From an uncultured Bacilli bacterium (lineage in GTDB: Bacteria; Bacillota_I; Bacilli_A; ML615J-28; CAG-698), in the NCBI GenBank assembly GCA_934096585.1, contig CAKOMG010000002.1, forward strand, positions 199,770-263,769: a stretch of DNA of 64,000 bases, read 5' to 3'. A model generated the notes under the pieces. That model had not been told where the DNA came from, ran no database searches, and saw only the letters and a program-made list of their open reading frames with translations. Below are positions 1,931-32,580 of this stretch, piece after piece. Position 1 is the stretch's first letter. Every line of letters starts with the position of its first letter. The position numbers were made by a program, and so were the translations under genes.

Positions 1931-2707
1931 ATGCTTGGTGCTATAATTGGTGATATTGTTGGTTCAGTATATGAATTTAATAATATCAAAACTAAAGATT
2001 TTCCTTTGTTTAGTGATAATAGTCATGTGACTGATGATACTATTATGACCTTAGCTATTTATGACATTTTAAAGCATAGTTCTTTAGATGAAAAAGATGT
2101 TGTAAAAGGAATTAAAGAATGGGGAAGAATGTATCCTAATGTTGGGTATGGTCATAGATTTTATCAGTTTCTACTTAGTGATGAATATGAAAGTTATAAT
2201 AGCTATGGTAATGGTAGTGCTATGCGAGTTAGTGCTTGTGGTTATTTAGGAAGAAGCAAAGAAGAAGTAAAGAAATATTCTAATCTTGTAACTAGATGCA
2301 CACATTCTCATCCTGATGCACTTCTTGGTGCTGAAGTTGTAAGTTTATGTATTTATTACGCAAGGCATAATAAAACAAAAGATTTTATAAAAAAGTATGT
2401 AAGTAAATATTATGATTTAAATTATTGTTATGATAATTTAGTTAAAAATTATACATTTGATGTCACTTGTAAAGGTAGTGTTCCTGTAGCAATATATTGC
2501 TTTTTAATATCTAATGATTTTATAGATTGCCTAAGAACAACTGTATCAATTGGAGGGGATACTGATACACTTTGTGCTATTGCTTGTAGTATTGCCTATC
2601 CTTTTTATAAAGTACATGATGATAATTTAATTAAAGAAGTAATGAAAAGAATTCCTGAAGGAAAAGCAAAAAATACTTTTATGGAAATAGTAAAGGAAGA
2701 AAAATGA
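1931..2707 (+). CDS. ADP-ribosylglycohydrolase family protein
   Basis: N-terminal GAIIGDIVGS...THVTDDT, typical of the ADP-ribosylglycohydrolase (DraG/ARH) fold. Lies 10 nt downstream of the HD gene. Confidence 0.55.
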   Translation: MLGAIIGDIVGSVYEFNNIKTKDFPLFSDNSHVTDDTIMTLAIYDILKHSSLDEKDVVKGIKEWGRMYPNVGYGHRFYQFLLSDEYESYNSYGNGSAMRVSACGYLGRSKEEVKKYSNLVTRCTHSHPDALLGAEVVSLCIYYARHNKTKDFIKKYVSKYYDLNYCYDNLVKNYTFDVTCKGSVPVAIYCFLISNDFIDCLRTTVSIGGDTDTLCAIACSIAYPFYKVHDDNLIKEVMKRIPEGKAKNTFMEIVKEEK

Positions 2708-2952
2708 AAACAAAAATAATTACTATGATATTAGGTATGCTATTATTCTTTGGTTGTGTTGCCCTTAGTGTCTTTCTATTTGCGAATAGAAATGATAATA
2801 ACAAAAATGTGTTGTGGGGGATTATAGTGATAGTCTTTGGTCCTTTGATTGATGTTGCTATATGCATGGTAATTTGCGGGGGAATTGAAGCTATAAAAGA
2901 AACTAAAGAATTAGAAGACTTTGTATATGATAGAAAAAAAGATAAAAAGTAA
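2704..2952 (+). CDS. small membrane protein (2 predicted TM)
   Basis: Hydrophobic 82-aa ORF overlapping the upstream stop (ATGA). Followed by a terminator. Confidence 0.4.
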   Translation: MKTKIITMILGMLLFFGCVALSVFLFANRNDNNKNVLWGIIVIVFGPLIDVAICMVICGGIEAIKETKELEDFVYDRKKDKK

Positions 2953-2977
2953 TGCAAATAAAGCATTACTTTTTTTA
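2948..2977 (+). terminator. rho-independent terminator
   Basis: agtaatgc-aaataaa-gcattact followed by TTTTTTT. Confidence 0.7.
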
Positions 2978-3204
2978 TCATTATTGTAAGAGATATTTTT
3001 TATGCAATAATTAAATATTATAAAAAAAACAAAAAATGCTCTGTCAAGATTTCTTATGATTAAAAATTGCTTTCACAAGATTATTTGATAGAACTAATAA
3101 AAAAAGACAAAGAGTATGGCGTTTAGCCATACTCTTTATCATAATAAAACATACAAATTAATAAAACAATAGTAGTCTTATACCACACCGAAAAAAGAAA
3201 TAGA

Positions 3205-3275
3205 AAGGAGAGAAAGTGCTTTCACACATCTCAATTTATTTTATCATATTATTTTTTAAAATGCAATAGTAATTT
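3205..3275 (+). repeat. copy A of a ~70-bp duplicated element (RBS + GTG + 17-codon hydrophobic ORF MLSHISIYFIILFFKMQ, 3216..3269)
   Basis: aaaggagagaaaGTGctttcacac...ttttatcatattat...gcaatag is shared almost exactly with copy B. Confidence 0.5.
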
Positions 3276-3340
3276 TTATTTTTTTATAATATTTGCTTTG
3301 AGTTTGTGCTTTTAAAGTGAAGAAAGACAAAATAACAAAA

Positions 3341-3369
3341 AAGACACCGTAGCTATCGGTGTCTTTTTC
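3341..3369 (+). terminator. rho-independent terminator
   Basis: gacaccg-tagctat-cggtgtc followed by TTTTT. One of the few GC-rich hairpins in the region. Confidence 0.75.
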
Positions 3370-3416
3370 AAATGAAAAAAATAATTAATATCTAAAGAAA
3401 GGATATTATAATAATG

Positions 3417-3487
3417 AAGAGAGGAAAGTGCTTTCACACTTACATCTATATTTTATCATATTATCTTATTAAAAGCAATAGTTAAAT
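3417..3487 (+). repeat. copy B of the duplicated element (RBS + GTG + 14-codon ORF MLSHLHLYFIILSY, 3428..3472)
   Basis: agagaggaaaGTGctttcacac...ttttatcatattat...gcaatag. Preceded by an extended -10 (ggaTATTATAAT). Confidence 0.5.
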
Positions 3488-3585
3488 AATAAATATTTAT
3501 AAAAAGTAAAGATATTTATTAATAATTAAATTATTATAGATTTTTTGATAAAAAAATGATACAATAAGTTTAATGAGGAAAATAA

Positions 3586-6429
3586 ATGAACTTAATTAAA
3601 AAAATAATTGTAAAATTAAAAATCAAAAAAATTCTTATAAATATAAATAATTATTCTTTATTTACAATAGAAACTAATTATTTAAAAGGATTAACTAATT
3701 GCAATGATAAAAAAATCAAAGAATTAGTTAATAATACATTAAAACAAATTGATGAACATAATGAAATTGTAAATCAATGTAGTTTAAAATTAAATAGTTT
3801 AAATTTGGATTTAAAAGAAATTATTCAGGCTCCAATACATTATGATATAAATGAATATAATAATCTTTATAATAATTTAAAACTATTTAAGATTAGTGAT
3901 GTAGTTATAAAACAAAAAATAAATAAGATTAAAGAAATTATTGATAAATATGATAATATCAAAGAACAATATCTATTGTATATTTATTTAAGTGATTTAT
4001 ATGAAAGTAAAAAGAATCATTATATTGATCAACAAGAAGCAATTGATGTAGTTAATAAAATTGATAATTGCTTTAAGAAAATTAATTTAAAAAATGAGTA
4101 TTATGATTTCGCATTATTTCATAACTTTAAACAAACTATTGATATTTTAAATAACAATTTTATAAACACTAATTTAAAAGATTGCATTTTTGATAATGTC
4201 AATAATCTTAGTTTAGATGATGAGCAAAGAAAAAGTATCTTACAAGATGATGTTTCCAATTTAGTAATTGCGGGTGCTGGAAGTGGTAAAACTTTAACTA
4301 TTTGTGGAAAAATAAAATATTTACTTGAAAAGCAAAATATAAATCCAGATGAAATATTAGTTTTATCATATTCAAAAAGTTCTAGTGAAGACTTAAATAA
4401 AAAAATTATAAATATTAATCCTAATATTAAAGTTAAAACATTTCATTCTTTGGGTTTAGAAATTATTCAAAGTTCTTTGAATAAAAAACAAACTATAGAT
4501 GATCAATATGATCATATAGTTGAAGAATATTTTAGTAAAGGATTATATGAAAAAAGAGGCTTATCAAAAACAATAATGATATATTATTCTTTATATTTGA
4601 CACCTATTGATGAAGATGAACATTTTGAAGAATTATATGAATATTTTGAATCTTTAAAGCAAAAGAAATTAATAACATTAAAAAAAGAAAAAGTAAAAAG
4701 TGTACAAGAATTAATGATTGCCAATTATTATTTTATTAATGGTATTAATTATGAATATGAAGCTTCATATAAAATTGATACGAGTACAGATGAAAAAAGA
4801 CAATATACACCTGACTTTAAATTAACTGATTTTGAAGATTTATATCATGAACATTATGGAATAGATGAAGAAGGCAATACTCCACAATTTTCTAAAGAAG
4901 AAGAAAAAGAATATATCAATGGAATGATTTGGAAAAGGAGTGTACACGAAAAGTATGAAACAAAATGTATTGAAACTTATTCATACCAGTTTTCTGATGG
5001 AACAATTTTTGATAACTTAGATAAAGAATTAGAACAATACGGAATTGTTAAAAAGCCAATTACTTTCAAAGACTTTATGAATACACTAGCATCAAATTAT
5101 GATGGTAATAATTTTAGTTCTTTAATTAGACTTATTAAAACATTTATAAATCTTTATAAGACTAAATATGCTAATAATAGTTATTTTGATGAACTTAAAA
5201 ATCAAGTATTTTCTTCAACATATCAAAAGAATAGAACTTCATACTTCATTGATATTTGTAAAGATGTTTATAATTATTATTATGAAAAATTAAAGAGTGA
5301 GAATAAAATAGACTTTGATAATATGATTTATGATGCTATTGATTACCTGTCCGATTTAAATAATTTTAAATATAAATATATTATTGTTGATGAATTCCAA
5401 GATATTTCAGTTAGTAGAATGCGATTATTAAAAGCATTGACGTATCACGGGAGTTCTAAATTATTTGTTGTTGGCGATGATTGGCAGGCTATTTATAGAT
5501 TTTCTGGATGTGATATTAATATCTTTTTAAATTTTGATAAGTATTTTCCAATGGCATCAATTAGTTATATTACAAAAACATATCGAAATTCTTATGAACT
5601 TCAAAAGATTGTTGAACCATTTATTACCGCAAATCCTGCACAAATAAAAAAGAATTTACGATCGGACATCCACTTAAATAATCCAGTTATAATTTTTTAC
5701 TATGATAAAGATAAAACATTAACTTTATATGAAATTTTTAAAGAAATATATAAGGAAAAAAGTGATGCTAGTATACTGTTATTAGGTAGAAATAATAAAG
5801 ATTTAGATAAAATAAATAAAATGACATATAGCAAAAAAGATGGTAAATTAATATTTTTATCTTATGAAACTTTTAATGTAACATTTAAAACTGTACATAG
5901 TTCAAAAGGATTAGAAGATGAGTATGTTATTTTACTTAATGCGGATGATTGTACAAATGGTTTCCCTAACAAAATTGAAGATGATAGAGTGCTGAATTTA
6001 GTATTAAGTGAGAAGGATGAATATAAATTTTCTGAAGAAAGAAGACTATTTTATGTAGCTTTGACAAGAACAAAATCGAAATGTTATATAATTGTTGATG
6101 CACATAGACCATCAATATTTGTAAAAGAAATAATAGATAATTGCATCATTGGTAATGAAAGTAAGTTTCCAATTGAGAAAAAATATCACTGTCCAAAGTG
6201 TAAAGGTAAGACATTAGTACTAAAAAGAGGAGATAAAAGGAATTTTTATTGTTGCACTAACTATCCTTATTGCGACTATATTACTAGTAATACCAGGATG
6301 GTTGAAAATCAAATTATTTGTCCTAAGTGTGGCCACTATATGGTTAGAAGACAAAACACAAGGGATGGATCCTATTTCTATGGATGTAGTAATTACCCGA
6401 ATTGTACTTTTACTAGAAGGTTCAATTAG
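3586..6429 (+). CDS. UvrD/PcrA-family SF1 DNA helicase with two C-terminal topoisomerase-type C4 zinc ribbons
   Basis: Walker A IAGAGSGKT. Motifs IIVDEFQD, VVGDDWQAIYRFSG, TVHSSKGLEDEYV and YVALTRTK. C-terminal CPKC...CCTNYPYCDY and CPKC...GCSNYPNC. The N-terminal ~220 aa is K/N-rich. Confidence 0.8.
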   Translation: MNLIKKIIVKLKIKKILININNYSLFTIETNYLKGLTNCNDKKIKELVNNTLKQIDEHNEIVNQCSLKLNSLNLDLKEIIQAPIHYDINEYNNLYNNLKLFKISDVVIKQKINKIKEIIDKYDNIKEQYLLYIYLSDLYESKKNHYIDQQEAIDVVNKIDNCFKKINLKNEYYDFALFHNFKQTIDILNNNFINTNLKDCIFDNVNNLSLDDEQRKSILQDDVSNLVIAGAGSGKTLTICGKIKYLLEKQNINPDEILVLSYSKSSSEDLNKKIININPNIKVKTFHSLGLEIIQSSLNKKQTIDDQYDHIVEEYFSKGLYEKRGLSKTIMIYYSLYLTPIDEDEHFEELYEYFESLKQKKLITLKKEKVKSVQELMIANYYFINGINYEYEASYKIDTSTDEKRQYTPDFKLTDFEDLYHEHYGIDEEGNTPQFSKEEEKEYINGMIWKRSVHEKYETKCIETYSYQFSDGTIFDNLDKELEQYGIVKKPITFKDFMNTLASNYDGNNFSSLIRLIKTFINLYKTKYANNSYFDELKNQVFSSTYQKNRTSYFIDICKDVYNYYYEKLKSENKIDFDNMIYDAIDYLSDLNNFKYKYIIVDEFQDISVSRMRLLKALTYHGSSKLFVVGDDWQAIYRFSGCDINIFLNFDKYFPMASISYITKTYRNSYELQKIVEPFITANPAQIKKNLRSDIHLNNPVIIFYYDKDKTLTLYEIFKEIYKEKSDASILLLGRNNKDLDKINKMTYSKKDGKLIFLSYETFNVTFKTVHSSKGLEDEYVILLNADDCTNGFPNKIEDDRVLNLVLSEKDEYKFSEERRLFYVALTRTKSKCYIIVDAHRPSIFVKEIIDNCIIGNESKFPIEKKYHCPKCKGKTLVLKRGDKRNFYCCTNYPYCDYITSNTRMVENQIICPKCGHYMVRRQNTRDGSYFYGCSNYPNCTFTRRFN

Positions 6430-6634
6430 GAAATTATCGCTTAATTTCGATGATTTTAATTTGTATAAAAAGAGACAATTTGTCTCTTTTTATTATATCT
6501 CTTTGTCACTATTTAAAATTTTTTTATTTTTTATTAAAAAAATTGTAGAAAGATTGATAAAAACGTGATATAATGAGAGAAGAAAGAAAGTAGTAAATAG
6601 TAAATTTATAAAGAGAAATAAGGATTTTACTATT

Positions 6635-7486
6635 ATGAATGATGAAAAATTTTTAAAAGCATTTAAAATGTTTGATGATTTTGGTGCTAAAAGTTGTGAC
6701 AATAAAACTGCTTTAGAGTTATTGAAGCAATTTCATGACACTAAATGGAAGACTCTTGTTGATTTCTTTCCAGCAATCAACAATGGAATGATGGTTATAG
6801 GATTTGATGATATTGATCATAATGTTTGTGTTTCATATTATAAACAGGTTGCAAAGGCAGCTGATTATAAAGCTTTATGTCATGCTTTTATTTATGGTGT
6901 ATTACATAATAAGCCTGAATATGAATATGCATTACTTGCATATTTATATTTAATGCATTTAGAAATGCATAAATATAATTTTGTTAATGGAAAATGTGAT
7001 GTTTGTCATATGTTTGATGTTAAACAAATGACTAAACAACAACAGTTCATTGAAGCTAATAATATTATGTATGATTTATGTGTTAAGGGTAAGGTTAATG
7101 AATTAGATTTTAATTCAGCAACTCTTATTCTTAAATACTTTAGAACTTTAAAAGAAGTAGTAGTAGATAAAAGTGATTATGATAAGTTTATTAAAGCATT
7201 AAATCTTATAAAAGATGATGATAATATGAAACCTAATGATTATGTCAATGTTTTATATTCAGAACACTATTTTGAAGGTTCAAAAGATGCTTTAACAAAT
7301 GTTGTTAATATACTTGGATATTTAAATATATTGCATCATCCTGATGTATTAGAGGAAGAGGAAATGAAATCACAATATGGATTTGATCCAAATAGTGAGT
7401 TTAAGTATCCAGTTCAATTATGGAATTCATCTTTTGGATATGATAAAAAGAGAGTAAAAGAATTATTTGGGGATATGTTTAAATAA
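6635..7486 (+). CDS. hypothetical protein
   Basis: ORF with an upstream RBS-like aaggat. No recognisable motif. Confidence 0.5.
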   Translation: MNDEKFLKAFKMFDDFGAKSCDNKTALELLKQFHDTKWKTLVDFFPAINNGMMVIGFDDIDHNVCVSYYKQVAKAADYKALCHAFIYGVLHNKPEYEYALLAYLYLMHLEMHKYNFVNGKCDVCHMFDVKQMTKQQQFIEANNIMYDLCVKGKVNELDFNSATLILKYFRTLKEVVVDKSDYDKFIKALNLIKDDDNMKPNDYVNVLYSEHYFEGSKDALTNVVNILGYLNILHHPDVLEEEEMKSQYGFDPNSEFKYPVQLWNSSFGYDKKRVKELFGDMFK

Positions 7487-7745
7487 AGGAACCTTTAATT
7501 TGCATTTCTTTGGTTTTAGTGGCGAGACTTAAAACTTAGTTGTTCAATTATTTTAAATTGAATTAAAAGGAAAATAGAGGGTTATTTTAGCAAATTATGG
7601 AAAGATTTGTAAGGAAGTTTATAAAGTAAGTAAGTATTAAACATAAAAAGATAATAGGTATATTTAGTCTCTTTAAAAAATGAGATGAGTATATGTCTTT
7701 TAATGTGTTTAATACTTTTTTTGTTTTATAAGGGGGCTTAATATA

Positions 7746-10112
7746 ATGACTTGTTTAGAGCAAATTGAAAATTCTAATCAGAATATTTGTAATAATTTGA
7801 AACATGCAAAGAATGATTCAATTAATGAAAGAGGTTTTTATTCAAATAATCTATTAAAGTATATACGCGATTTAATTGAAGGAGTATTTGGTTATATTTA
7901 TAATGTGAAGAACAATGTCAATTTAGAATACAGCCAAAGCAATTACCATATATTTAAAAAATATGCATTGGATAATCATGAATTAAATTTTATTACGAAA
8001 TTTCATCAATTATTACAAAACTCAAGCTCTCATTATTCGTTATCTGATGAAATCGCAGAAAGAGTTTTTATTAAGTATTTAAAATATTTAAATGAATTAA
8101 AAATATTTATGAAAAAAAATTTCAACATTGAAATTTTAGAAAATATAGATGATTTTCCTCTTAACTATTGTCAGGATGTTCAACAAATATATAATGAAGT
8201 AGTAAAGGAATTTTATGCTATTAATTTACAAAAAGGAGTTTCAAAAAGGTATTATATACAAAAAATTAAACCATTTTTTGTTAATAAAAAGATGTATTTT
8301 GAAATTACATTAATTTCAGCATATGATTATGCTAGCAAAACTGATAGAATGATAGTTTATTCTGAAAAATGTATTGATACTAATTATTGTGTCACTATTG
8401 AACATGTTAGAAAAATAATTAAAGTTTCAAATATTGATATCGATGTAAACATTTTGTTAAATTATAAAATTTCAATAAGACCGTGTGAATTTAAAAATTT
8501 ATTTAAACTATTAGGAGTCGAACTTGATCATATAGGTGATACACATACAAAAATCAATAATTATTTAACACAATCAGGATTAAATCTATTTGAAATATGT
8601 TCATGCAGCGAAAAAGTATTTAATGATTTTTTAAATAACTTTGAATCTAGTGATAAAGGTCAAGGTATAATCGATGGTTTTAAAAGAATTAGAAACATTA
8701 TTGTTAATCATTTAAACGGGTCCAATATATTAAAATATTTGTTATTTATTATGAACAATCGAGTATTGAAATCGCAATATGAAGAAAAAGAAAATCAAAT
8801 TTTATCAAATCTATATTTAAAATGTGAAAGTATTCCTTTTGATGAAATGCCATATTGTTCTGATTTACATAAGCATAAAGTATCAATAAGTTATTTATAT
8901 GAATGTATATCTTCAAAAAATAGAGAACATGAATTTATAGCAAAAAAATTGAATCTTATAACTCAAGACACAAATAGTATTTATCACGAATTAGATGAAT
9001 TTTCAAATAATAAAAATATAGAGTTGCTTATAAGTAAACATACTGAAAAATTATATTATAAACATACTTGCAATGAAAAAGATAGAAGAATACTAGATTG
9101 GAATAAAAAATATTATATAGGACAAAATGAGAATATAATTAAATCAATTTTAGATAAATTAATTGCTTTAGCATCAACAAAAATTGATAACATGACTGCA
9201 AATAATGAAATGGTTATTAATGCTTTCCCAATTAATCAAGAAAAGAAAGATATTTTAAAAAATATGTTTAACAATAATTCTATTTCATTAATATATGGTT
9301 CAGCAGGTACAGGCAAAACAGAATTGATAAAGTATTTTTCAAAATTAAATGACACAAAAGAAAAGTTATTTATAACTCATACTTATAGTGCGTTAAATAA
9401 TTTAAAAAATAGAATTGATATAAGAAATTCTAGGTTCATAACTGCAGATAGTTTTATAGAAAGAAAAGTAAAATTTCAAACAGAAATTGTCATATTTGAT
9501 GAATGTTCTACTATTGATAATGCTCAAATGTATTATTTGTTAAATAATATAGAATTTAAATGTGCTATATTTGTTGGGGATGTTTATCAAATAGAATCTA
9601 TAGAATTAGGTAACTGGTTTTATTTAATAAGTAAATTTGTACCTAAAAATGTTATTAATATTTTAACTGAAAATTTTAGAACAAATAATAATGAATTACA
9701 AAACATATGGAAAGAAATAAGAGAAATTAAAGATGAATCAATGCTATCTCTAGATTTGAAAAAGTATTCACATTTAATTTCGGATGAATTATTTAGAAAA
9801 TGTTCTGATGATGAAATAATTTTATGCTTAAATTATAATGGTTTGTATGGCATCAATTCCATAAATAATTATTTTCAAAATAATAATCCTAACGAGGAAT
9901 TTTATTGGGATGGAAAGTACTATAAAAAAGAAGATCCTATAATTTTTAATGATTCTAAAGCTTATCCAAATCTTTTTTATAACAATTTAAAAGGAAAAAT
10001 AATAGACATAAGTAAAGAAAATGATAAATATATAGTTTTTACATTAGAAATCTTTAGAAGAATTGATTATTTTGGCTATTTTTACAATGTGAAAATAATT
10101 GAAACAATTTAG
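7746..10112 (+). pseudogene. RecD/Pif1-like SF1 helicase, N-terminal unknown domain plus helicase core and SH3-like domain. Frame-broken before the C-terminal subdomain
   Basis: Walker A YGSAGTGKTE, Walker B VIFDECST and FVGDVYQ. The frame ends ETI* exactly where the next ORF continues the helicase in another frame. Confidence 0.65.
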
Positions 10113-10132
10113 ATGGACATGCAATTGTTAGT

Positions 10133-10480
10133 TTGACGATTCATAAAAAAGCATCTAAAGATGACGAAGATAATGAAATAAATAATTATTATGTTCCGTT
10201 TGATGTTGCTTATGCAATGTCAATACATAAATCACAAGGGTTAGAATTTGACTCCGTTAAAATTATAATTACTGATGAGATAGATGAGAAAATATCACAT
10301 AATATTTTTTATACTGCTATTACAAGAGCGAAGAATCAGTTGGCTATTTATTGGTCACCAGAAACGGAGAAAAAAATCATAAGTAATTTTACTAAACTCA
10401 CTAGAGGAATAGATGCTAATATATTAGCAGAAAAATTTAAATATAAAATGTATAAAAATCAAAAATATAAATGTATTTAA
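10133..10480 (+). pseudogene. C-terminal helicase subdomain (UvrD_C_2-like) of the same RecD-like helicase, in the +2 frame relative to the upstream part
   Basis: AMSIHKSQGLEFDSV and YTAITRAKNQL motifs. Its frame opens at 10103, overlapping the upstream stop. Confidence 0.65.
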
Positions 10481-10493
10481 GGAGGAAGTACAA

Positions 10494-11411
10494 ATGAGTA
10501 ATCCAGTTGCAGAAGTAATATCTGCATTAACTTCACCAGTAACTTACTTAATTGATATAATAAGCAAGGGAATAGGTGTTTTATATGAACCACATAGAAT
10601 TAAAAAAGAAGCAGATGCAGTAGCATATAAAATTAATAAAATTAGTCAAGTGATTTCTGATAATGGAAATGAATCAATTGAATATAATGATAATAATTTA
10701 ATTATCAATAATTATGGCAGTCAATTATATAATAATACAATTGCAAGATTTGTACATTTAGAATTACAAAGAGAAATAAATATTGAGAAAATAGCTGACA
10801 AAGCATATGATATTTTGTTAGAAAAAACACAGCAGCTCACAGAAACTGTTTCACAAGATTGGATTTTCAAATTTATTACTTCTGCACAAGATATATCAGA
10901 AGAAACAATTCAGACATTATGGGCTAAAATATTAGCTAATGAAATATTAAAACCTAATAGTTTCTCATTAAGGACATTGAATGTTTTAAAAAATATGTCA
11001 AAAAATGACGCTTTACTGTTTGAAAAAATATGTTCTTGTATTATTAATAATGATTTTGTTCCTAATGAATTATCAATTTTAAAAAAATATGGAATTACTT
11101 ACAAGGATATTGTAAGTTTGGATGAATATGGATTAGTCAATTCATCTGGAACAGCTGTAACTAATTTTAATATTACTACAACTAATAAAATGTTATTTAA
11201 AAATGATTTATGGATTTGTGCCGCAAATAACCCTTCAAAAATATCGTTGCTTTGTTTTCCTTTAACGAATGTGGCAAAAGAGATAAAATCAATTATTAAT
11301 ATTGATATTAATGAAAAATTTTTGTTGGAATATGCACAAAAAATTAGGGATGATAATCCTAAATCCCAAATAGTATTATATAAAAAAGATGTAGAAACAA
11401 AATATCAATAA
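10494..11411 (+). CDS. hypothetical protein (W-x-K-I-L-A-N-E motif, weakly reminiscent of DUF2806-type proteins)
   Basis: GGAGG RBS. 14 nt after the helicase fragment. The family assignment is by memory only. Confidence 0.45.
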   Translation: MSNPVAEVISALTSPVTYLIDIISKGIGVLYEPHRIKKEADAVAYKINKISQVISDNGNESIEYNDNNLIINNYGSQLYNNTIARFVHLELQREINIEKIADKAYDILLEKTQQLTETVSQDWIFKFITSAQDISEETIQTLWAKILANEILKPNSFSLRTLNVLKNMSKNDALLFEKICSCIINNDFVPNELSILKKYGITYKDIVSLDEYGLVNSSGTAVTNFNITTTNKMLFKNDLWICAANNPSKISLLCFPLTNVAKEIKSIINIDINEKFLLEYAQKIRDDNPKSQIVLYKKDVETKYQ

Positions 11412-11462
11412 GAGAAAAAGGAAAATAAAAAATTTACAAAATTAAAAAAAAGGAGAAATTGT

Positions 11463-12296
11463 ATGTCAACAATACCAAAAAAATTTATAGAATCAATTGT
11501 TACGATAAGTGTTAACACAACAAGCAATCAAAAAACTTGTATAGGTACGGGATTTTTAATAGCATATTTAGTGGAAAATATTAATAATACAAAAAAATAT
11601 GGACTATTTTTAATAACAAATAAACATGTTTTGCAAAATCAGAAAAAAGTATTTATTGGATTTAATCAAATTAACGTGCCTTCATCATTTGAAGTACAAA
11701 TAGATTTAGAACAAAATGGACAATTATCATATTCAATGCATATGAATCCTGCTGTAGATATAGTGGCAATGAATATTAATGTGCTATTTTTGCAACAAAT
11801 GAATGCTCAATATCAATATTTTAGATTTGATGATGATGCTTTAAAGATTCAAGATATGCAGTCAAAGAATATTTTCGAAGGAGATATTATTTATTCATTG
11901 GGATACCCATTGAATTTGGTAAACACATCATCAAAAAATCCTATTTGCAGGTTAGGATGTGTTTCTAGAATTGCTGATTTATATATACCTAGTAATCCTG
12001 AAGTTAATTTTTTAGTTGATGCCCAATCATTTCCTGGAAATTCAGGAGGACCTATTATTTTAATAAAGGACGAGATTGCTTCTAATAATGAAAACAGAAC
12101 TAATTCTTATTTGATTGGCATTTTACATAAGAACATTTTATATCAAGATCAACTTATCAGTGCACGAATGGGAAATGCGCAATCTATTTTATCTGAAAAT
12201 AGCGGTCTAACAATGGTACATCCTGTTGATTTTATAGAAGAAGTAATTAAATTAGAAATTTTAAGAATTGGCATTAATAACATAACATCATGCTAA
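11463..12296 (+). CDS. cytoplasmic trypsin-like (S1/Trypsin_2) serine protease
   Basis: CIGTGFLI...TNKHV (His). DIVAM (Asp). FPGNSGGPII (GDSGGP-type Ser). No signal peptide. AGGAG RBS. Confidence 0.7.
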   Translation: MSTIPKKFIESIVTISVNTTSNQKTCIGTGFLIAYLVENINNTKKYGLFLITNKHVLQNQKKVFIGFNQINVPSSFEVQIDLEQNGQLSYSMHMNPAVDIVAMNINVLFLQQMNAQYQYFRFDDDALKIQDMQSKNIFEGDIIYSLGYPLNLVNTSSKNPICRLGCVSRIADLYIPSNPEVNFLVDAQSFPGNSGGPIILIKDEIASNNENRTNSYLIGILHKNILYQDQLISARMGNAQSILSENSGLTMVHPVDFIEEVIKLEILRIGINNITSC

Positions 12297-13852
12297 CAGA
12301 AGGAAATCATAAAGTGACAGAACTAGAAAAAAAACAATATGTTTTTAACGGCATAATTAATGAATTATTTGCAAGAATTTATAATTATAATTCCAATTTA
12401 TTGAGTAAATGTAATAAAGGTGATGAGTGTAATTATGATGAAGTATTTGATTTTTATATTACTTCTAATGCTATAAGCTTTTTAAAAAATGTATATTTAG
12501 GTTTTATTACATCTCAAACATTTTTTTTAAATATTAGGTGCATTATTGAAGGATTAGCAGTAAAAAAAGCATTTGAAAAAAATTATTTTACAATAACAAA
12601 TTTCAATTTGTTAAAAGTACAAGCTCCGATTATTGAGTACCATCAATATAAGGAATTTCAAAATATACTTGATGAATGCTTATTTAAACATAGAGTTTTA
12701 AAAGGATATAATGAAGCAAAAAATGTGTTTCAGCAATCATTGCCTAATCTAAGTAATAAGGAGTTTAACAAAGTTTTACGTTCTCAAATTCCATTTTCTG
12801 GCAATTCAAAAATGACTTATAAAAAAATAATTTATGATAATTTAGGAGAAGAAATGGCAGAAGCGTATGGCTTCTTAAGTACAATTGTTCATCCGAATTC
12901 AAATTATAAAAAAAATACATCAGATTTGCTTCAAGTAATTGTTTTAACAATAGAACGTTTAAGATTAGAGTATAATAAAAAAAAGCAAGGAACAATAGAT
13001 TTAAAGCAAATGGATACTTTTGTAAAGCTTTCTTCTGATGCTAAAGCTTTTGAAGAAATTATTAATGAAATATGTATAAATTTTAAAACTATAAGTGATT
13101 ATTTTGAAAAAAATTTTGGAGAAAATTATGTAAGTTTTACTTTTACTGATTTAAGCCATATTTATAAAGAAGTTTCGAGTGATTTAATATTTGGATTTGT
13201 TGAACAAGTTAAGTCAAAATATAAAGTCATTCTTGAACTATTGGCCAGCTTTCATTATGTATATATTGAAAGTGATCATGTTAATCAAGTTTTTCAATTA
13301 TTAAAATATAATGAATTTATTAATTCATCAAATAAGGACAGTAATATAAAATTTGATAAACAATTAAAACAAGGATATGAAGCTTATAAGGAAATTTATA
13401 AAAATGGAGTTAGTTATGATTTGTTTGTGAAAAAATTTAGTAATAAATTAGGATATACAATCAATGAAAATGGTGATGTAAAAACTTATAATGAATTGGT
13501 AAAGGATTTTTGTAACATATTTGATGTGCCTGATGATAGCATTTCACTTCCAAAAGTTCTTAAATTAAATTATGTTGAATCACAAATGTTATCTCATGCT
13601 AATGGTTACATGTGGTTTGCAAATTCAGGAGCATGGGGAGATGTAAATAACGTATTTGTAAATTTAAATATTATGTTAGCAAAAATTTGTTTCACAATGT
13701 ATATAATATTTAAAAACTATTATGATCAAAGTAATGAATATAAGTATAAAAAAATGGCTAATCTTTTGAAGAAGGCATATAAATATATAAATAATAGCCA
13801 ATTAATGATAATAGAAATTTTAAATAAAAGAAATGGGATAATAGCACAATAG
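12290..13852 (+). CDS. hypothetical 520-aa protein, translationally coupled to the protease gene
   Basis: ATG overlaps the protease stop (ATGCTAA). No recognisable motif. Confidence 0.55.
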   Translation: MLTEGNHKVTELEKKQYVFNGIINELFARIYNYNSNLLSKCNKGDECNYDEVFDFYITSNAISFLKNVYLGFITSQTFFLNIRCIIEGLAVKKAFEKNYFTITNFNLLKVQAPIIEYHQYKEFQNILDECLFKHRVLKGYNEAKNVFQQSLPNLSNKEFNKVLRSQIPFSGNSKMTYKKIIYDNLGEEMAEAYGFLSTIVHPNSNYKKNTSDLLQVIVLTIERLRLEYNKKKQGTIDLKQMDTFVKLSSDAKAFEEIINEICINFKTISDYFEKNFGENYVSFTFTDLSHIYKEVSSDLIFGFVEQVKSKYKVILELLASFHYVYIESDHVNQVFQLLKYNEFINSSNKDSNIKFDKQLKQGYEAYKEIYKNGVSYDLFVKKFSNKLGYTINENGDVKTYNELVKDFCNIFDVPDDSISLPKVLKLNYVESQMLSHANGYMWFANSGAWGDVNNVFVNLNIMLAKICFTMYIIFKNYYDQSNEYKYKKMANLLKKAYKYINNSQLMIIEILNKRNGIIAQ

Positions 13853-13884
13853 GAATGAATGTTTTCAAATTAAGGGATTAATTT

Positions 13885-14412
13885 ATGAATATAGAAACAA
13901 GAAAAGAAGAACATCAAATTATTAATAATTTGATTAATGAAATAAAATCATTAGATTTTAAAGCGGGGATATTAATGATAATAACTTCGTTATTTACAAT
14001 ATTTTCTTATAAATATATTGATGTTTTAAAAGACATAAAAATTAAAGAAATGGTTTATTCTGATTTATCAATAATTTATTTAATTTATAAGATATGTATA
14101 ATTACATTTGTTTCTTTAAATGTATTAGCATTATTAATGTTTTTAACTAGTTTATTAATAAGTGCAAGACATAGAAATAAAAATAGTTTAAGTAATTATA
14201 AGAATATACTTAGAATGAATACTTTTAATATTGATTGTGAAATAGGTAATTTAATTGATAATGATGAGGATTTAATTTTACAAATTAAAACTAAAGCATC
14301 AATTATTAAAAGAAAGAATTATTGGATAGGGTTAGGAATAATGATATTTGTTTTAATGTTTATTGTTTTTATTGGGTTAGGTGTATTAAGTTACATGAAT
14401 GTAGTTATGTGA
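13885..14412 (+). CDS. small integral membrane protein (about 3 TM helices)
   Basis: Hydrophobic segments ILMIITSLFTIF, IITFVSLNVLALLMFLTSLLI and IGLGIMIFVLMFIVFIGLGVL. Confidence 0.55.
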   Translation: MNIETRKEEHQIINNLINEIKSLDFKAGILMIITSLFTIFSYKYIDVLKDIKIKEMVYSDLSIIYLIYKICIITFVSLNVLALLMFLTSLLISARHRNKNSLSNYKNILRMNTFNIDCEIGNLIDNDEDLILQIKTKASIIKRKNYWIGLGIMIFVLMFIVFIGLGVLSYMNVVM

Positions 14413-14431
14413 AAAGAAAGAGAAGTGCGCA

Positions 14432-15388
14432 ATGGAAGAAGTAAAAGAGTATTTAAATAATGTATTAAGTACAAAAGAATTAAAGTATGGTGGTCCTAAA
14501 TATTTATATAAATATAGACCTTTTGATAAATATACATTTGATATGTTAGAAAACAATTATGTTTTTTTGTGTAAAGCTGCAGATTTAGATGATAAATCAG
14601 AATGTGATGTTTCAATAGATATAAGTTCATTAGTTGATAATGAAAAGGGTACATTAAAAAAAGAGTGTATAAATCAGATTTTAGAAATAGTTAAACCTTA
14701 TACTACTGAAGAAAATTTTAATAAATCAAGAAACACCATATTAGCTTGTGAAAATGCAAATGGAACTATTCAAGCTAATCAATTATTAGAAAGATATTTT
14801 GGGTTACAAGAATTATTTCCTGATAATGATATATCACCATTTATTAATTTTTTTGCTGATTTACCTAAACGAATAGAGAATTTAATGGATAACATAGATG
14901 CTGGAAAATTGATTAAATTAGCAGTAGATGCAAAACAATCAATAGGAATATGTTCGTTATCTGATTCTTCAAATATTGAAAAACAATGGGAACAATATGC
15001 GAATAATGAAACGGGATATTGTATAGAGTATGATGTAAGTGATTATAAGTTAAATAACAATTTATTTCCTGTAGTTTATGAGGATGATAGAAAGAATAAT
15101 ATCACTATGGTATTAGTTGCATTATTGGTTAATTCATTTATCAGAAAAATAAGCGCTAATCAAATAAAAACAGATATAACACAATACTTTCGTTTATTTT
15201 TAACTAAAAATACTATATGGGATTATCAAAGAGAATGGAGAATATTAGGCGATGCTAATTCAAAGGAAATTGCACCTAAAATTAAAACTATTTATTTAGG
15301 TAAAGAAGTGAGTAGTGAAAATGCAAAAAAAATGGAAGAGTATTGTTTGAAAAATAAAATAAAACTGGTAAATAGAAAGGATACTTAA
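14432..15388 (+). CDS. DUF2971-like protein
   Basis: N-terminal LYKYRPFDKYTFDMLENNYVFLCKAADLDDKSEC resembles the DUF2971 signature. Assigned from memory. Confidence 0.5.
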   Translation: MEEVKEYLNNVLSTKELKYGGPKYLYKYRPFDKYTFDMLENNYVFLCKAADLDDKSECDVSIDISSLVDNEKGTLKKECINQILEIVKPYTTEENFNKSRNTILACENANGTIQANQLLERYFGLQELFPDNDISPFINFFADLPKRIENLMDNIDAGKLIKLAVDAKQSIGICSLSDSSNIEKQWEQYANNETGYCIEYDVSDYKLNNNLFPVVYEDDRKNNITMVLVALLVNSFIRKISANQIKTDITQYFRLFLTKNTIWDYQREWRILGDANSKEIAPKIKTIYLGKEVSSENAKKMEEYCLKNKIKLVNRKDT

Positions 15389-15391
15389 TTA

Positions 15392-17131
15392 GTGAAGAGT
15401 AATAATTTAGAAAAAATATTACAAGATTTTATTGAAAATAATGAATATAAGTCTATTTTAATTAATGGTCCCTGGGGTTGTGGAAAAACCTATGAAGCTA
15501 ATAAATTCATTAAAGGACATAAAAATGATAAAAACAAAGTTTATTATATATCTTTATTTGGGTTAGAAAGTATTGATGAAATAAATACAGAATTATATTG
15601 CGCCACCCAAAAACATACAAATTTGGCTAAAAGAGTATTAAAAACAGGCTTTTTTGTATTAACAAAAGCTATAAAAGCAATACCACAAGTTTCTGATTTT
15701 ACAACGGCCCTTGATTATCAACTTTCTATCATTAATGATGGTTCAAAAAAGAAAAAAGAAATTAAAAAAACACTGCTAATTTTTGATGATTTAGAAAGAT
15801 TATCAAATAACATTTCTTATTCTGATTTGTTAGGGTATATGAATTCTTTATTTTTATCAAATTGTAGATTTGTTTGTTTAATGTCTTATGAGAATGTTAA
15901 TGAAAATAGGAAAAAAGATTTTGATGATTTTAAAGAAAAGGTATTCGACACGATTTACAATATAAATGAGTCAAATATAGATGTTCTTGACGAAATATTT
16001 TCAAATTTGAATTTTTCTTTAAATACTGACATTTATGAACTATTTGAAATGAATATACGATTTGCAAAGAAAACAAAATTATTTTATGACAGAATAGAAA
16101 AGCATATGGACACATCAAAAATTAATTTAGAAGATATAAGTTTAAATAAAGAATTATTAATAAAAGCATGTATATATACAATAAAAATATCACTAAAAAA
16201 CCATGAAATGGTTGATGGAGATCATAATAAAGATTATAAATTTTATAACGAGTATTTTGATAACGATATTGCCAATGGAATTATAAACATAATTAAAAAT
16301 GAAAAATATAAAAGCGATTTTTCAATTCCTAATTTTAAATTTTTGGTTATGTCACTTTTAAAAGTATTTATGCATGATGATTATACTATGTTTGATAGTT
16401 TAACTATTGATGAAAGTGATAATAAAACTGACTATATTTTGGACAAGACTTTCTTTTATTTATCTGATGAACATAAAATAGAATATATTAACGAATTTAA
16501 AAAGGCTTTAAATGATAAAGAATTTAAATGGAATGGTGGACTTGGAAGAATATTGGGTGCTATTTTAAATGATAGTGATGTTTCTTTTACTGATGAAGAA
16601 ATTGCTAGTATTGCTAGATATCTAGTTAGTGAAAAGCAAAATGGTAAAATAAATGTAAAATGGGAATTGAATATATATGACAATAACAATATAATTTCAA
16701 AATATGATGATTTAATTAAAAAAATAGAAAACAAAATTAATGAAATTAAAAAAATTGATTATGTTCAAAAGTTAAAGAGATATGTAAAAGAATCTAATTA
16801 TAATGAATTGTATAATTGTGTTAGTGAACTTGGTACATGTGATACTCCAGAAAAACAAGAGGCATTAAAATATATAGTTGATAACAATTTTTTGATTCCA
16901 GATATTTCAGGTGATATTGATGAAAATCTATGGTCTTATTGTCATTCAATGGCACGATTTGCTAAAGCTAATGATAAGTGCGATGAATTTATTAAATATG
17001 CAAAATCAGTTTGCAATAAAGCTAAGTCAATAAGCGAAATCGAAAGATTTTATGCATTAATCTATTACAATATTGATAGCAATTTTAAGAAGAATGATTT
17101 AAGCAATATGAAAAACGAATATAATAATTAA
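15392..17131 (+). CDS. KAP-family P-loop NTPase (soluble, no TM insert)
   Basis: ILINGPWGCGKTYEA (GxWGxGKT) and LLIFDDLERL. 4 nt after the upstream gene. Confidence 0.7.
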   Translation: MKSNNLEKILQDFIENNEYKSILINGPWGCGKTYEANKFIKGHKNDKNKVYYISLFGLESIDEINTELYCATQKHTNLAKRVLKTGFFVLTKAIKAIPQVSDFTTALDYQLSIINDGSKKKKEIKKTLLIFDDLERLSNNISYSDLLGYMNSLFLSNCRFVCLMSYENVNENRKKDFDDFKEKVFDTIYNINESNIDVLDEIFSNLNFSLNTDIYELFEMNIRFAKKTKLFYDRIEKHMDTSKINLEDISLNKELLIKACIYTIKISLKNHEMVDGDHNKDYKFYNEYFDNDIANGIINIIKNEKYKSDFSIPNFKFLVMSLLKVFMHDDYTMFDSLTIDESDNKTDYILDKTFFYLSDEHKIEYINEFKKALNDKEFKWNGGLGRILGAILNDSDVSFTDEEIASIARYLVSEKQNGKINVKWELNIYDNNNIISKYDDLIKKIENKINEIKKIDYVQKLKRYVKESNYNELYNCVSELGTCDTPEKQEALKYIVDNNFLIPDISGDIDENLWSYCHSMARFAKANDKCDEFIKYAKSVCNKAKSISEIERFYALIYYNIDSNFKKNDLSNMKNEYNN

Positions 17132-17825: not shown

Positions 17826-17837
17826 GTTGATATAATT
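17826..17837 (+). promoter_or_regulatory. extended -10 promoter (TGTTGATATAAT) for the methyltransferase gene
   Basis: A TGnTATAAT-type element ~25 nt upstream of the ATG at 17863. Confidence 0.45.
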
Positions 17838-17862
17838 GAACATATTTCAGAGATTAATAATT

Positions 17863-19083
17863 ATGCTTAAACAATCAATAAATGTTCATTTAACTAGAAA
17901 AGAAATAATTAAAAGTGGTAGTGTTTATACAAGTCCTGAATTAGTTAACTTAGTATTTAATCAAGCACAAGAATTTATAGATGGAAATACAGTTATAGGC
18001 GATTTTGGATCTGGATACGGAGCCTTTATAGAAAAATTTAAAAATTATGGTAAAAGATGTTTCGGAACTGAATGTGATGATTTAGCTTATAATTTATTAA
18101 AAAATGTTTATTTCGATATAGATATTTATCATGAAAACTCATTATTAAATGTAAATAGGGAAAAGTATTCTATATTGGAGCAAGACAAATTGATGATTAT
18201 CGGAAATCCTCCTTATAACGATACAACTAGTATATTCAAAAAGGGCGAAAAAGGTGAATTGATTTGTGATTCTGATTTAAAATCAAGAGATTTTGGCTTA
18301 TCTTTCTTAAAGGCTTATAACAAGCTAAAAGCAGATTACATTTGTGTCTTGCATCCTTTATCATATTTAATAAAAAAGCAAAATTTTACTTCTTTAGGTG
18401 ATTTTAAAAATAACTATAAATTGATTTCAGGGACTATCTTTTCAAGTAAAGAATTTGAGAGTATAAAGAAAAATAATTCAGATTTTCCTGTCGTTTCTGC
18501 TATATATAAAAGAGATGAAAAAGGAATGGATTATGATTTTATAAGAAAATTTAAATTTAAAATTTATAGAGAAAAAGGCGAATTCATATTAAGCAAAGTT
18601 TTAACTATTGATGGTTTGGTTGGCAAATACCCAACATCACATAAAATGAATAATAACCAAAATGAATCTAACTTAACTAAGCAAGATCAAAATAAAAATG
18701 ATTTGATACATTGCTTGCAATTTTATACACTAAGAGATATGAACTCGTTATTAAGAAATACTGGTTTTGTTGAAGGAGTAATTCCTAATGGAATTGACGT
18801 AACTTTAGAAAACTTATACCAATATTCATGGCTTTATTTTTTGAAAATTAATTTTAATCCAACGATAAATAAGTTTTTATATGGTAATTTATCTCCACTT
18901 TATTCAAATAAGATGAATGATTCAAAATTCAAATCTGAAGTTGTATATTATGCTTATTATCATTGTGATTTAGTTAAAAAATATATGAATTTAGAAAAGA
19001 TAAAATCATTATATGGACCATCTCCTGATCAATATAGTGCAATCTTTGATGAACTAGAAAATATATATAGCTTGTTTGTGTAA
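17863..19083 (+). CDS. gamma-class N6-adenine DNA methyltransferase (M.TaqI-like)
   Basis: Motif I VIGDFGSGYGAF upstream of motif IV IIGNPPYN. The track ORF starts at a TTG inside the -10 box; the ATG at 17863 is the likely start. Confidence 0.7.
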   Translation: MLKQSINVHLTRKEIIKSGSVYTSPELVNLVFNQAQEFIDGNTVIGDFGSGYGAFIEKFKNYGKRCFGTECDDLAYNLLKNVYFDIDIYHENSLLNVNREKYSILEQDKLMIIGNPPYNDTTSIFKKGEKGELICDSDLKSRDFGLSFLKAYNKLKADYICVLHPLSYLIKKQNFTSLGDFKNNYKLISGTIFSSKEFESIKKNNSDFPVVSAIYKRDEKGMDYDFIRKFKFKIYREKGEFILSKVLTIDGLVGKYPTSHKMNNNQNESNLTKQDQNKNDLIHCLQFYTLRDMNSLLRNTGFVEGVIPNGIDVTLENLYQYSWLYFLKINFNPTINKFLYGNLSPLYSNKMNDSKFKSEVVYYAYYHCDLVKKYMNLEKIKSLYGPSPDQYSAIFDELENIYSLFV

Positions 19084-19591: not shown

Positions 19592-20365
19592 TTAATTTTG
19601 TGCAAAAGCATTTTTAATTATTACACTTAAAATTTCTAAAATATCATGTTTATGTGTTGATGAACACATTCCAAAACAAATAAATAAATCAAAAATAATA
19701 GATTTCATAGAAACATCAAAGGTTAGAATTCCATATGGTGTTTTTGCTGCAGTATTATTAATAATATTAGCACTATTATCAAATGCATCAACTGGAATAA
19801 TTAAATATAACATTGGTTGAACTCCTGTTGCGTATTGTTGCTTTTGTATCATGATTTCTATCAGCAGTTTTGAGTCATTAGGCTTAGTAATAAATGTAGG
19901 TAATTTAGTTGAAGAAGATAAAAATTCTATATTGTTTATTAGTAATGGGGCTTCTTTTTTAACTTCGATAGAATATTGATCTTGTAAAAAAGTGTTATTA
20001 TTATGTATTTGATTATAAATATTAGATATTTCTTGCTCTGAAATAATATTATTTTTACACATAAAATAAGTGATTTCTGATAATTCATAAGGGTGCTTTC
20101 TTTTTTTATTTGCTCCGATAAAAACAAAATTGTCAGTGTTAAGCTGTGTATTTTTTTCATCATTTCCAATTATAGTGTCGTAACCTATCTGCCATTCTAA
20201 ATAAGATTTTTTTGAAATAATATTTGATTTTGGTGCAAAGCCACTACCAAAAGATTGAATGTCATCTCTTGTTTTGCATCTGAATTTTCCTTGGCTTGTT
20301 AAAGGTAAGTTAACGGTTAGTGTATTATCGTTATTATCATAAAACATTTCAGCTAATTTTCTCAT
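19592..20365 (-). CDS. hypothetical protein; candidate cognate restriction endonuclease (convergent with the MTase)
   Basis: 257-aa ORF with an RBS (aggaggaact) before the ATG. No clear nuclease motif. The call is contextual only. Confidence 0.35.
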   Translation of the reverse strand: MRKLAEMFYDNNDNTLTVNLPLTSQGKFRCKTRDDIQSFGSGFAPKSNIISKKSYLEWQIGYDTIIGNDEKNTQLNTDNFVFIGANKKRKHPYELSEITYFMCKNNIISEQEISNIYNQIHNNNTFLQDQYSIEVKKEAPLLINNIEFLSSSTKLPTFITKPNDSKLLIEIMIQKQQYATGVQPMLYLIIPVDAFDNSANIINNTAAKTPYGILTFDVSMKSIIFDLFICFGMCSSTHKHDILEILSVIIKNAFAQN

Positions 20366-32577: not shown

Positions 32578-32580
32578 AAA

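Follow-up and report, generated by a model that had tools for sequence, protein, structure and literature searches.

The question raised by the locus considered here is whether six closely spaced genes operate as a single defense system or represent separate entities standing next to each other. The genes, designated A to F (positions 10,494–17,131), belong to a stretch of 64,000 nucleotides (nt) from an uncultured Bacilli bacterium (NCBI GenBank assembly GCA_934096585.1, contig CAKOMG010000002.1, positions 199,770–263,769 of the forward strand), hereinafter referred to as the window, whose own numbering is used throughout. They encode a DUF2806 protein (A), a serine protease (B), an all-alpha protein (C), a small membrane protein (D), a DUF2971 protein (E), and a KAP-like P-loop NTPase (F). 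A preliminary description of this DNA presented them as a tightly coupled operon and a candidate undescribed defense module, possibly as two adjacent ones. All six open reading frames (ORFs) were recovered on the + strand, and the phage-defense context was corroborated by the neighboring PDC-S53 helicase and type II restriction–modification (R-M) genes as well as by the matches of four of the six products to PADLOC models. As to the organization of the region, sequence comparison suggests a different answer: with a probability of about 0.65, it is a strain-variable mosaic segment of a chromosomal defense island made up of independently exchangeable modules, not one system.

According to this reading, the island would consist of head-to-tail modules (the decaying helicase, A, B, C, E, and F, followed by the type II R-M genes), each of them a single gene as far as the data show, and each module would act alone as an abortive-infection or defense gene. 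D and a 283-amino-acid (aa) gene located farther upstream would serve as species-conserved anchors for homologous recombination, where strains swap whole cassettes. A new multi-gene system combining a protease trigger with a membrane effector would have mattered; the evidence shows an ordinary, well-resolved mosaic island, and the locus provides a concrete case of tight same-strand packing being misleading.

Borders of Exchange between Strains

Look-ups of near-identical proteins revealed five other contigs harboring the same locus (L026, L027, L035, L036, and L037), and the borders of homology were determined with blastn against the window. In L026, the homology extends at 98.6% identity over window positions 2313–14415 and is lost 3 nt past the stop codon of D; E lies outside this common block. 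D is followed in L026 by a different DUF2971 allele, which was not detected by phmmer seeded with E at an E-value of 0.01, and by a gene for a 1236-aa STAND-like NTPase: the DUF2971 alleles are exchanged between the strains. L027 shares with the window only the 283-aa gene (6427–7744) and a segment comprising C and D, the latter segment at 79.7% DNA identity and with 62% identity of the C proteins. In L035, L036, and L037, the common segments are limited to the 283-aa gene and D (93.5–95% identity for D). The homology around D begins there 5–16 nt before its ATG and ends 0–3 nt after its stop codon; the borders of the array in the strain comparison fall exactly at the edges of D.

The surroundings of D vary accordingly on both sides. 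In L035–L037, the genes immediately preceding D (217, 152, and 90 aa) are unrelated and lie 10–25 nt away from it, with ThsA-Macro/TIR, NUDIX, and AAA_23 genes situated farther upstream. On the other side, D is directly followed in L035–L037 by a DUF2971 gene with a YobI-ATPase gene, by a gene of 322 aa, or by one for a DUF6119 protein; in L027, the corresponding neighbor is of the Metallophos-nSTAND type. No island-internal gene other than D is retained at an identity of at least 90% across the six contigs. Since its borders and neighbors change in the sister contigs, D can be regarded as a conserved anchor between two cassette hot spots and not as a dedicated partner of C. The suggestion that this membrane protein is the effector of a protease/unknown/membrane-protein trio did not survive the comparison, D being found after unrelated genes in three sister contigs. 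The other putative anchor, the 283-aa gene, displays 96.5–98% DNA identity over window positions 6427–7744 in L027, L035, L036, and L037, where its flanking genes differ as well; its product yielded no above-threshold match in Pfam, PADLOC, or NCBIfam.

The spacing of the genes, which underlay the operon call, deserves separate consideration. The intergenic gaps from A to F amount to 51, −7, 32, 19, and 3 nt, the value of −7 holding for C started at ATG 12290; of the gaps given in the preliminary description (52, −7, 33, 20, and 4 nt), all save the overlap were off by one. The overlap itself of the protease gene with the 520-aa ORF exists with this ATG and disappears with the alternative start, GTG 12314, which leaves a gap of +17 nt. 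Because the GTG is preceded by a ribosome-binding site (RBS; GAAGGA) and the ATG lacks a Shine–Dalgarno sequence, the overlap is probably an artifact of ORF calling; the gene callers started the 512-aa homologs of C at the GTG. Across the window, the + strand carries 44 of the 48 ORFs of at least 120 aa, and each of the six genes A–F is preceded by its own RBS. The counts of promoter-like and terminator-like sequences equaled the shuffled expectation, such a scan being uninformative in AT-rich DNA (the host DNA is very AT-rich, with ca. 23% GC and a range of 19–31% in the window). Rfam RNA elements were not matched in the 3–22 kb part of the window, and the search for repeats or att-like sites at the cassette borders returned AT-rich chance matches only. 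On these data, a tightly coupled operon was not shown; moreover, as D sits 10–33 nt after four unrelated genes in the comparison with the sister contigs, the tight spacing at this locus is no sign of functional coupling.

Proteins A, B, E, and F and Their Relatives

Each family represented in the segment, except the species-restricted D, also occurs separately. The families of A, B, C, and F are encountered without the other window genes, which, along with the break at the borders of D, speaks against one undescribed multi-component module. The option of two adjacent systems (protease/unknown/membrane protein and DUF2971/KAP) came closer to the truth; still, it was too coarse: the data fit five or six independent modules. 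Placement of the gene pairs in an already named system had been proposed as a refutation of their novelty: the members were so placed singly (PDC-S45 for B, PDC-S31/Aristaios for E, and PDC-S49 for F), not as pairs. B, E, F, and the helicase all fall into PADLOC categories for candidates of a single gene (the PDC-S prefix), and the present findings support PDC-S45, S31, and S49 as mobile single-gene cargo.

The product of A matches Pfam DUF2806 with an E-value of 6e-34 (118 bits). Its matches to NCBIfam TIGR03899 (2.6e-29) and to Pfam Abi_alpha (DUF4393, PF14337; E-value 0.0021, 18.6 bits vs. a cutoff of 29) are below the cutoffs, and PADLOC gave no match. Abi-alpha, an abortive-infection protein of an E. 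faecalis prophage, was reported to be similar to the DUF2806 family PF10987 (PMC6356687). In line with this reported similarity, A is a cytoplasmic DUF2806 protein of ca. 300 aa with a weak direct match to Abi_alpha; at the same time, DUF2806 is its best-supported family. Judging by these matches, A is a putative relative of the Abi-alpha family and would operate as an Abi-alpha-like lysis-timing factor. Relatives of A occur singly, as part of the backbone of IncX4 mcr-1 plasmids.

B is assigned to Pfam Trypsin_2 (1.4e-6) and to PADLOC PDC-S45 (1.2e-29). As described previously, it contains the triad motifs (TNKHV at residue 52, DIVAM at 99, and GNSGGP at 192) and lacks a signal peptide, no hydrophobic N-terminal segment being present; its triad of His55, Asp99, and Ser194 is invariant among 29 homologs. 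The AlphaFold model (predicted local distance difference test score, pLDDT, of 87) finds its best PDB matches in the protease domains of DegQ, DegS, and HtrA1, without a PDZ domain. By these features, B is a predicted cytoplasmic HtrA/DegS-like serine protease with an intact triad, and it would represent an infection-activated intracellular protease.

The relatives of B are numerous (>660 homolog clusters) and lack a constant neighbor. In 80 metagenome loci, relatives of A, C, D, and E are all missing, and a KAP-like gene is present in only two of the 80. Usually, a B relative occupies a site between the hsdM and hsdS genes of a type I R-M operon, next to a varying cargo (DUF6414, DpnII-like, DUF4145, AbiJ-like, KilA-N), and the closest relatives (56% identity) are alone in islands or integrative elements, with gaps of ca. 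200 nt. A pairing of A with B, i.e., of DUF2806 or DUF6414 with the protease, was considered and rejected: DUF6414 is upstream of the protease in 38 of 62 metagenome loci, but these loci are highly redundant, the others have DpnII-like, DUF4145, AbiJ-like, or KilA-N genes or nothing at this place, and no DUF2806 gene was seen near B relatives.

A trypsin-like protease in a defense island is reminiscent of the nuclease–protease pairs described for Hachiman, AVAST, Lamassu, and DRT (PMC12799240). Unlike in these pairs, B is a free-standing domain of 277 aa, not fused to HamA, Avs1a, or LmuA; the gene upstream of it encodes a DUF2806 protein without an MBL-fold nuclease domain, and the company of its relatives is inconstant. 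By analogy, a protease activating a neighboring proenzyme is a plausible model for B.

The recurrence of PDC-S45 proteases between hsdM and hsdS was recorded in L046:3665-11667 and in ca. 50 other loci among L038–L117; in those type I R-M loci, a second variable cargo gene is often situated upstream of the protease. In addition to its copy of B, L026 contains a diverged protease of the B type (L026:18103-18960; 285 aa; 1.2e-52 against B), which adjoins an ISL3 transposase fragment.

The DUF2971 assignment of E proved correct (Pfam PF11185, 3e-9, above the cutoff; PADLOC PDC-S31, 1.3e-28). Its relatives were not found in IMG/VR. Aristaios, a validated single-gene DUF2971 antiphage system from the Lactococcus plasmid pUCCL641, has a predicted ADP-ribosyltransferase-like fold (PMC11381338), and a 316-aa protein of pUCCL641D was taken as Aristaios by matching its size and plasmid with that report. 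E and Aristaios are similar in length (318 vs. 316 aa), possess the same domain, and are found in a defense or mobile context. The alignment, however, covers only the domain core, i.e., the C-terminal half of E (31% identity over 173 aa, E-value 2e-16); the N-terminal 150 aa are unrelated. By analogy with what was proposed for Aristaios, E would act as a toxin of the ADP-ribosyltransferase fold.

The DUF2971 genes are unusually many and diverse among the island variants (L036:4139-7983, L027:13488-13937, L035:10558-11535, and L026:12129-13064), with alleles 20–72% identical. A DUF2971 gene directly follows D in three of the six variants, and L036 has several copies or fragments. On pUCCL641D (L126:3638-4974), the putative Aristaios gene is followed by a remnant of 98 aa annotated as "AAA family ATPase" and abutting an IS6 element, so the original locus of this plasmid may have been composed of a DUF2971 gene and an ATPase gene.

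F matches PADLOC PDC-S49 (1.5e-26) and contains the Walker A motif GPWGCGKT at residue 26 and the Walker B motif DDLERL at residue 132. No transmembrane (TM) segment was found in it, there being no 19-residue window with a Kyte–Doolittle mean of at least 1.6. Hence, the motifs and the absence of TM helices noted earlier are upheld, and the name KAP rests on these motifs, on PDC-S49, and on plasmid annotations: F did not match Pfam KAP_NTPase (PF07693) at an E-value of 0.1, its best Pfam match, ATPase_2 (6e-7), being under the cutoff. The first ca. 170 aa of F match lone plasmid genes of 550–620 aa annotated as "KAP family NTPase" or "P-loop NTPase fold protein"; for its C-terminal region (ca. 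400 aa), no relatives were detectable among solved structures. A likeness to Tmn, reportedly a KAP-family phage-defense NTPase with TM helices going back to the work of Gao and colleagues in 2020, was rejected on account of the lack of TM helices in F.

KAP NTPases fused to uncharacterized C-terminal regions are known to protect as single genes (PMC12632615). F resembles these defense NTPases, e.g., EF_KAP (PMC12632615), in its GxWGxGKT Walker A and DDLxR Walker B motifs followed by a C-terminal region of ca. 400 aa, and differs from EF_KAP, which has TM helices, in lacking them, as well as in leaving PF07693 unmatched. By analogy with what was shown for other KAP proteins, F would be an ATP-dependent switch over its own C-terminal region. 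In each of the four plasmid contexts inspected, the F-like gene stood by itself; a pairing of E with F was rejected, since none of the four contained a DUF2971 gene.

Overall, the picture resembles that of the cargo of type I R-M operons and of hot spots flanked by core genes. Relatives of B, C, E, and F occur repeatedly between or beside hsdM, hsdS, and hsdR, and the window locus exhibits the turnover of cassettes between conserved flanking genes. The differences are that the window cassettes are located outside any type I R-M operon and that one of the anchors is a PycTM-like membrane protein inside the island.

Protein C, Protein D, and the Alternatives to a Mosaic

In agreement with the earlier remark on the 520-aa ORF, C has no recognizable domain, with no match in Pfam, PADLOC, or NCBIfam; in the libraries searched, it is the only one of the six proteins absent from the catalogs. 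Its homologs form at least 105 clusters (at 90% identity), nearly all of 500–525 aa. The AlphaFold model (pLDDT 91, predicted TM-score, pTM, 0.92) is entirely helical, with 23 helices; Foldseek retrieved nothing from the PDB at an E-value of 0.001 or lower, and the two halves of the protein are not detectably homologous to each other. The residues invariant in the family are R83, E87, H201, E430, Q432, H436, and N438. The identity of C as a HEPN RNase was rejected: no Rx4-6H motif is seen near the invariant histidines, and HEPN fold and motif together are lacking. DUF5677 (PF18928) does not match C itself; 10 of 35 family members match it weakly at residues ca. 110–205, with sub- or near-cutoff scores (at best 1.1e-5 and 26.0 bits vs. 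a cutoff of 27.1). A DUF5677 ORF was among the nine candidates screened in a published study and is absent from the five reported as protective (PMC12632615).

The relatives of C are absent from the IMG/VR viral contigs and the PLSDB plasmids. In 25 species-representative genomes and three further lineages, they occur without A, B, or D, in the vicinity of SIR2, HerA, RhuM, type IV Thoeris, PD-T4-1, SoFic, AbiH, AAA_21, and type I R-M genes. From these neighborhoods, we infer a defense-associated role of C, and its family, residing in defense islands and type I R-M operons, emerges as an uncatalogued candidate defense family. Follow-up is merited only by this family and by its weak tendency to be associated with DUF2971 and KAP-like genes. 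A conserved pair of C and D, suggested by L027, was rejected as well: D stands behind unrelated genes in L035–L037, and C is found without D in 28 other lineages.

Several database proteins (P0095, P0100, P0101, P0103, P0104, and P0105) represent in-frame fusions of a C-terminal part of the C family to N-terminal fragments of other defense proteins (NERD, RloB, KAP NTPase, HsdR domain 3, DEAD helicase, and HsdS), with junctions at query residues 227–414; the loci L134:3075-4628 and L013:3775-11479 are listed with them. P0101 comprises the first 285 aa of the KAP-like gene of L013 (100% identical) and the last 232 aa of the C homolog of the same locus. By this correspondence, it is a deletion product from which hsdR and the DUF2971 gene have been removed, and it seems that the 3′ half of C persists through the turnover of cassettes, serving as an anchor.

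Certain observations weigh against the mosaic of independent modules. The sole contig repeating the order A-B-C-D, L026, is 98.6% identical to the window, so it does not constitute independent evidence either way. The PDC families of PADLOC are candidates, not validated systems, and synergy between adjacent defense genes has been documented elsewhere (PMC13069673). Finally, in other lineages C turns up repeatedly in the neighborhood of DUF2971 genes, of genes for PDC-S49-type NTPases, or of both, a hint of some functional or ecological connection. In L006 and L013, the gene immediately preceding C encodes a DUF2971 protein, this pair being kept with the C proteins 73% and the DUF2971 proteins 46% identical between the two loci. 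A PDC-S49-type NTPase gene immediately precedes C in L004 and is found two genes before it in L013; L004 also contains an E-like gene (45% identity) at 5.5 kb downstream of C. More generally, a same-strand upstream gene abuts or overlaps C in approximately half of the loci with upstream sequence.

One may, therefore, suppose that C is a conserved sensor or regulator serving an interchangeable upstream gene, with B and C making up a genuine two-gene system in the window. In the broader wording, C would found an uncatalogued anti-phage family of gut Firmicutes acting as a common sensor/regulator for interchangeable upstream effectors, B and C being one modular pair. The genes abutting or overlapping C on its upstream side would then be its partners: beside the DUF2971 and PDC-S49-type genes just mentioned, these are SIR2_2 (L005, L018), HerA (L007), RhuM (L010), a SymE-like gene (L033), and the protease of the window. 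Against this, a close same-strand upstream gene is missing from L027 (a gap of 287 nt), from L028–L032 (a divergent neighbor), and from L034, L135, L011, L012, and L022, and C accompanies B relatives in none of the 80 protease loci. The supposed partners include complete known systems or toxins (HerA following SIR2; RhuM), and the positions of D described above demonstrate that tight spacing joins unrelated genes. The independent cases are few, given the synteny between L005 and L018 and the relatedness of L006 to L013. Both wordings of the idea are considered unlikely.

In another scenario, C, the DUF2971 protein, and the KAP-like NTPase would constitute a loose three-component system with no fixed order of genes, D being an unrelated insertion in the window. 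The three families are found within 10 kb of each other in the window, L004, and L013, and two of them in L006. A DUF2971 gene is present in 3 of the 28 non-window lineages of C vs. 0 of the 80 protease loci (Fisher p ~0.02 by a crude hand calculation), and a P-loop NTPase gene comes after DUF2971 in the window (KAP-like), L035 (YobI-ATPase), L026 (STAND-like), and pUCCL641D (the truncated AAA ATPase). However, L026 keeps C and replaces both E and F, the break point lying between C and these two, and both partners are missing from most C loci. A single gene suffices in the case of Aristaios (PMC11381338), and the plasmid-borne F-like genes stand by themselves; in L013, hsdR separates the KAP-like gene from DUF2971, and F of the window shares only 24–28% identity with the KAP-like proteins encoded in L004 and L013. 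L004, L006, and L013 are in or beside R-M genes, viz., hsdR (L006, L013) and an Eco57I-type methylase gene (L004). All three families commonly travel as cargo in type I R-M operons, which accounts for their co-location without a functional relation; a three-component system is judged to be quite unlikely.

D raises the possibility of yet another arrangement. Its hydrophobic blocks (residues 22–41, 57–95, and 144–175) correspond to 3–4 TM helices, in keeping with the three reported before. It matches PADLOC PycTM models nearly end to end (5e-8, 9.5e-8, and 3.5e-4), e.g., PDLC02364 with 5.1e-8, residues 10–168 being aligned to profile positions 10–152 of 160. In the Pfam-A scan, D had no PF18967 match at an E-value of 0.1; its relatives of at least 90% identity carry precomputed PF18967 matches. 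When 1.84 billion representatives were searched exhaustively with HMMER, only the own cluster of D and ten proteins at 23–31% identity were returned. D resembles PycTM, the effector of the pyrimidine cyclase system Pycsar, in its small size, its 3–4 TM helices, and its matches to three PycTM models. It differs from it in that no cyclase gene adjoins it in any of the six locus variants: no cyclase domain was found by Pfam or PADLOC in the window genes at 6.6–19 kb, nor was a cyclase family among the precomputed Pfam matches flanking D in L026, L027, and L035–L037, where several neighbors are matchless. Moreover, D is a species-restricted orphan and a conserved anchor, not part of a mobile two-gene cassette. 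As a cyclase is lacking in every variant, D is best described as an orphan PycTM-like protein and not as Pycsar.

Nevertheless, D could be imagined as a shared membrane effector, i.e., a PycTM-like pore or disruptor triggered by whichever sensor cassette adjoins it. Such a role would explain why D alone is conserved in the middle of the island; besides its resemblance to the Pycsar effector, the ThsA-Macro and TIR pair just upstream of it in L036 could make nucleotide signals. On the other hand, the six variants share neither a cyclase nor another common signal generator, the neighbors of D are mutually unrelated, some of them being self-contained systems, and the second anchor, the 283-aa gene, behaves alike without effector features. 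The conservation of D is equally well explained by a core gene supplying homology for cassette exchange, and its role as a shared effector is regarded as very unlikely. Finally, one co-transcribed defense system of all six genes, to which the common strand, the short gaps, and the lack of a predicted terminator between the genes would point, is hardly credible in view of the break point after D in the 98.6%-identical strain L026, the occurrence of C and D without A, B, E, and F in L027, the existence of every family but D apart from the rest and of D beside unrelated cassettes in the sister contigs, and the fact that co-orientation and tight packing are the rule across the whole window.

Other Genes and Features of the Window

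The coordinates of the mosaic segment and its surroundings are collected in Table 1.

Table 1. Features of the mosaic segment and adjacent genes (window coordinates)
Feature	Position	Strand	Description
Left anchor gene	6635–7486	+	283-aa protein, no family match
SF1 helicase, frameshifted	7746–10480	+	PADLOC candidate PDC-S53; ORFs 7746–10112 and 10133–10480
A	10494–11411	+	305-aa DUF2806 protein; own RBS AAGGAGG
B	11463–12296	+	277-aa chymotrypsin-fold serine protease, PADLOC PDC-S45
C	12314–13852 (GTG, 512 aa) or 12290–13852 (ATG, 520 aa)	+	All-alpha, DUF5677-like
D	13885–14412	+	175-aa membrane protein, PycTM-like
Recombination breakpoint	14413–14431	.	L026 homology ends at 14415 (blastn and six-way alignment of the 3′ border of D)
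E	14432–15388	+	318-aa DUF2971 protein, PADLOC PDC-S31
F	15392–17131	+	579-aa soluble KAP-like P-loop NTPase, PADLOC PDC-S49
Type II R-M methyltransferase	17836–19083	+	PADLOC MTase_II 4.4e-43
Type II R-M endonuclease	19592–20365	−	PADLOC REase_II 2.8e-8

The helicase gene upstream of A is broken, as reported earlier. Its two parts match PDC-S53 with E-values of 1.5e-225 and 2.7e-44, covering profile positions 4–784 and 796–896 of 900, and the split arises from a 1-nt deletion in an A-run near position 10102 relative to the intact 911-aa gene of L026.

Farther upstream, window positions 3586–6429 encode a UvrD/helicase IV-like protein (947 aa) that bears zinc ribbons of the topoisomerase type at its C-terminal end. 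In L035–L037, its place is taken by a 1070-aa UvrD-like gene with no detectable DNA homology to it. The intergenic stretch that precedes the UvrD-like gene of the window contains a 59-nt direct repeat (3212–3270 and 3424–3482; 81% identity, 212 nt apart).

Downstream, three overlapping genes at 22472–30381 encode proteins resembling RecC (943 aa, Exonuc_V_gamma), a UvrD/RecB helicase (1044 aa), and RecD (660 aa). The RecD-like protein also matches PDC-S68 and type IV RecD models; judging by these similarities, the RecBCD-like genes could be either housekeeping or defense-associated. At 31336–34257, a gene for an IetA-like AAA ATPase (413 aa; PADLOC IetA, 1.5e-15) is followed 3 nt on by a gene for a 558-aa protein without a Pfam or PADLOC match, and the two may represent an ietAS-like pair with a non-canonical partner. 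Lastly, at 38729–43451, a gene for a 1237-aa helicase matching the PsyrT and DpdF models (2.4e-36 and 1e-34) overlaps that for a 338-aa protein without matches, which together are likely another defense module.

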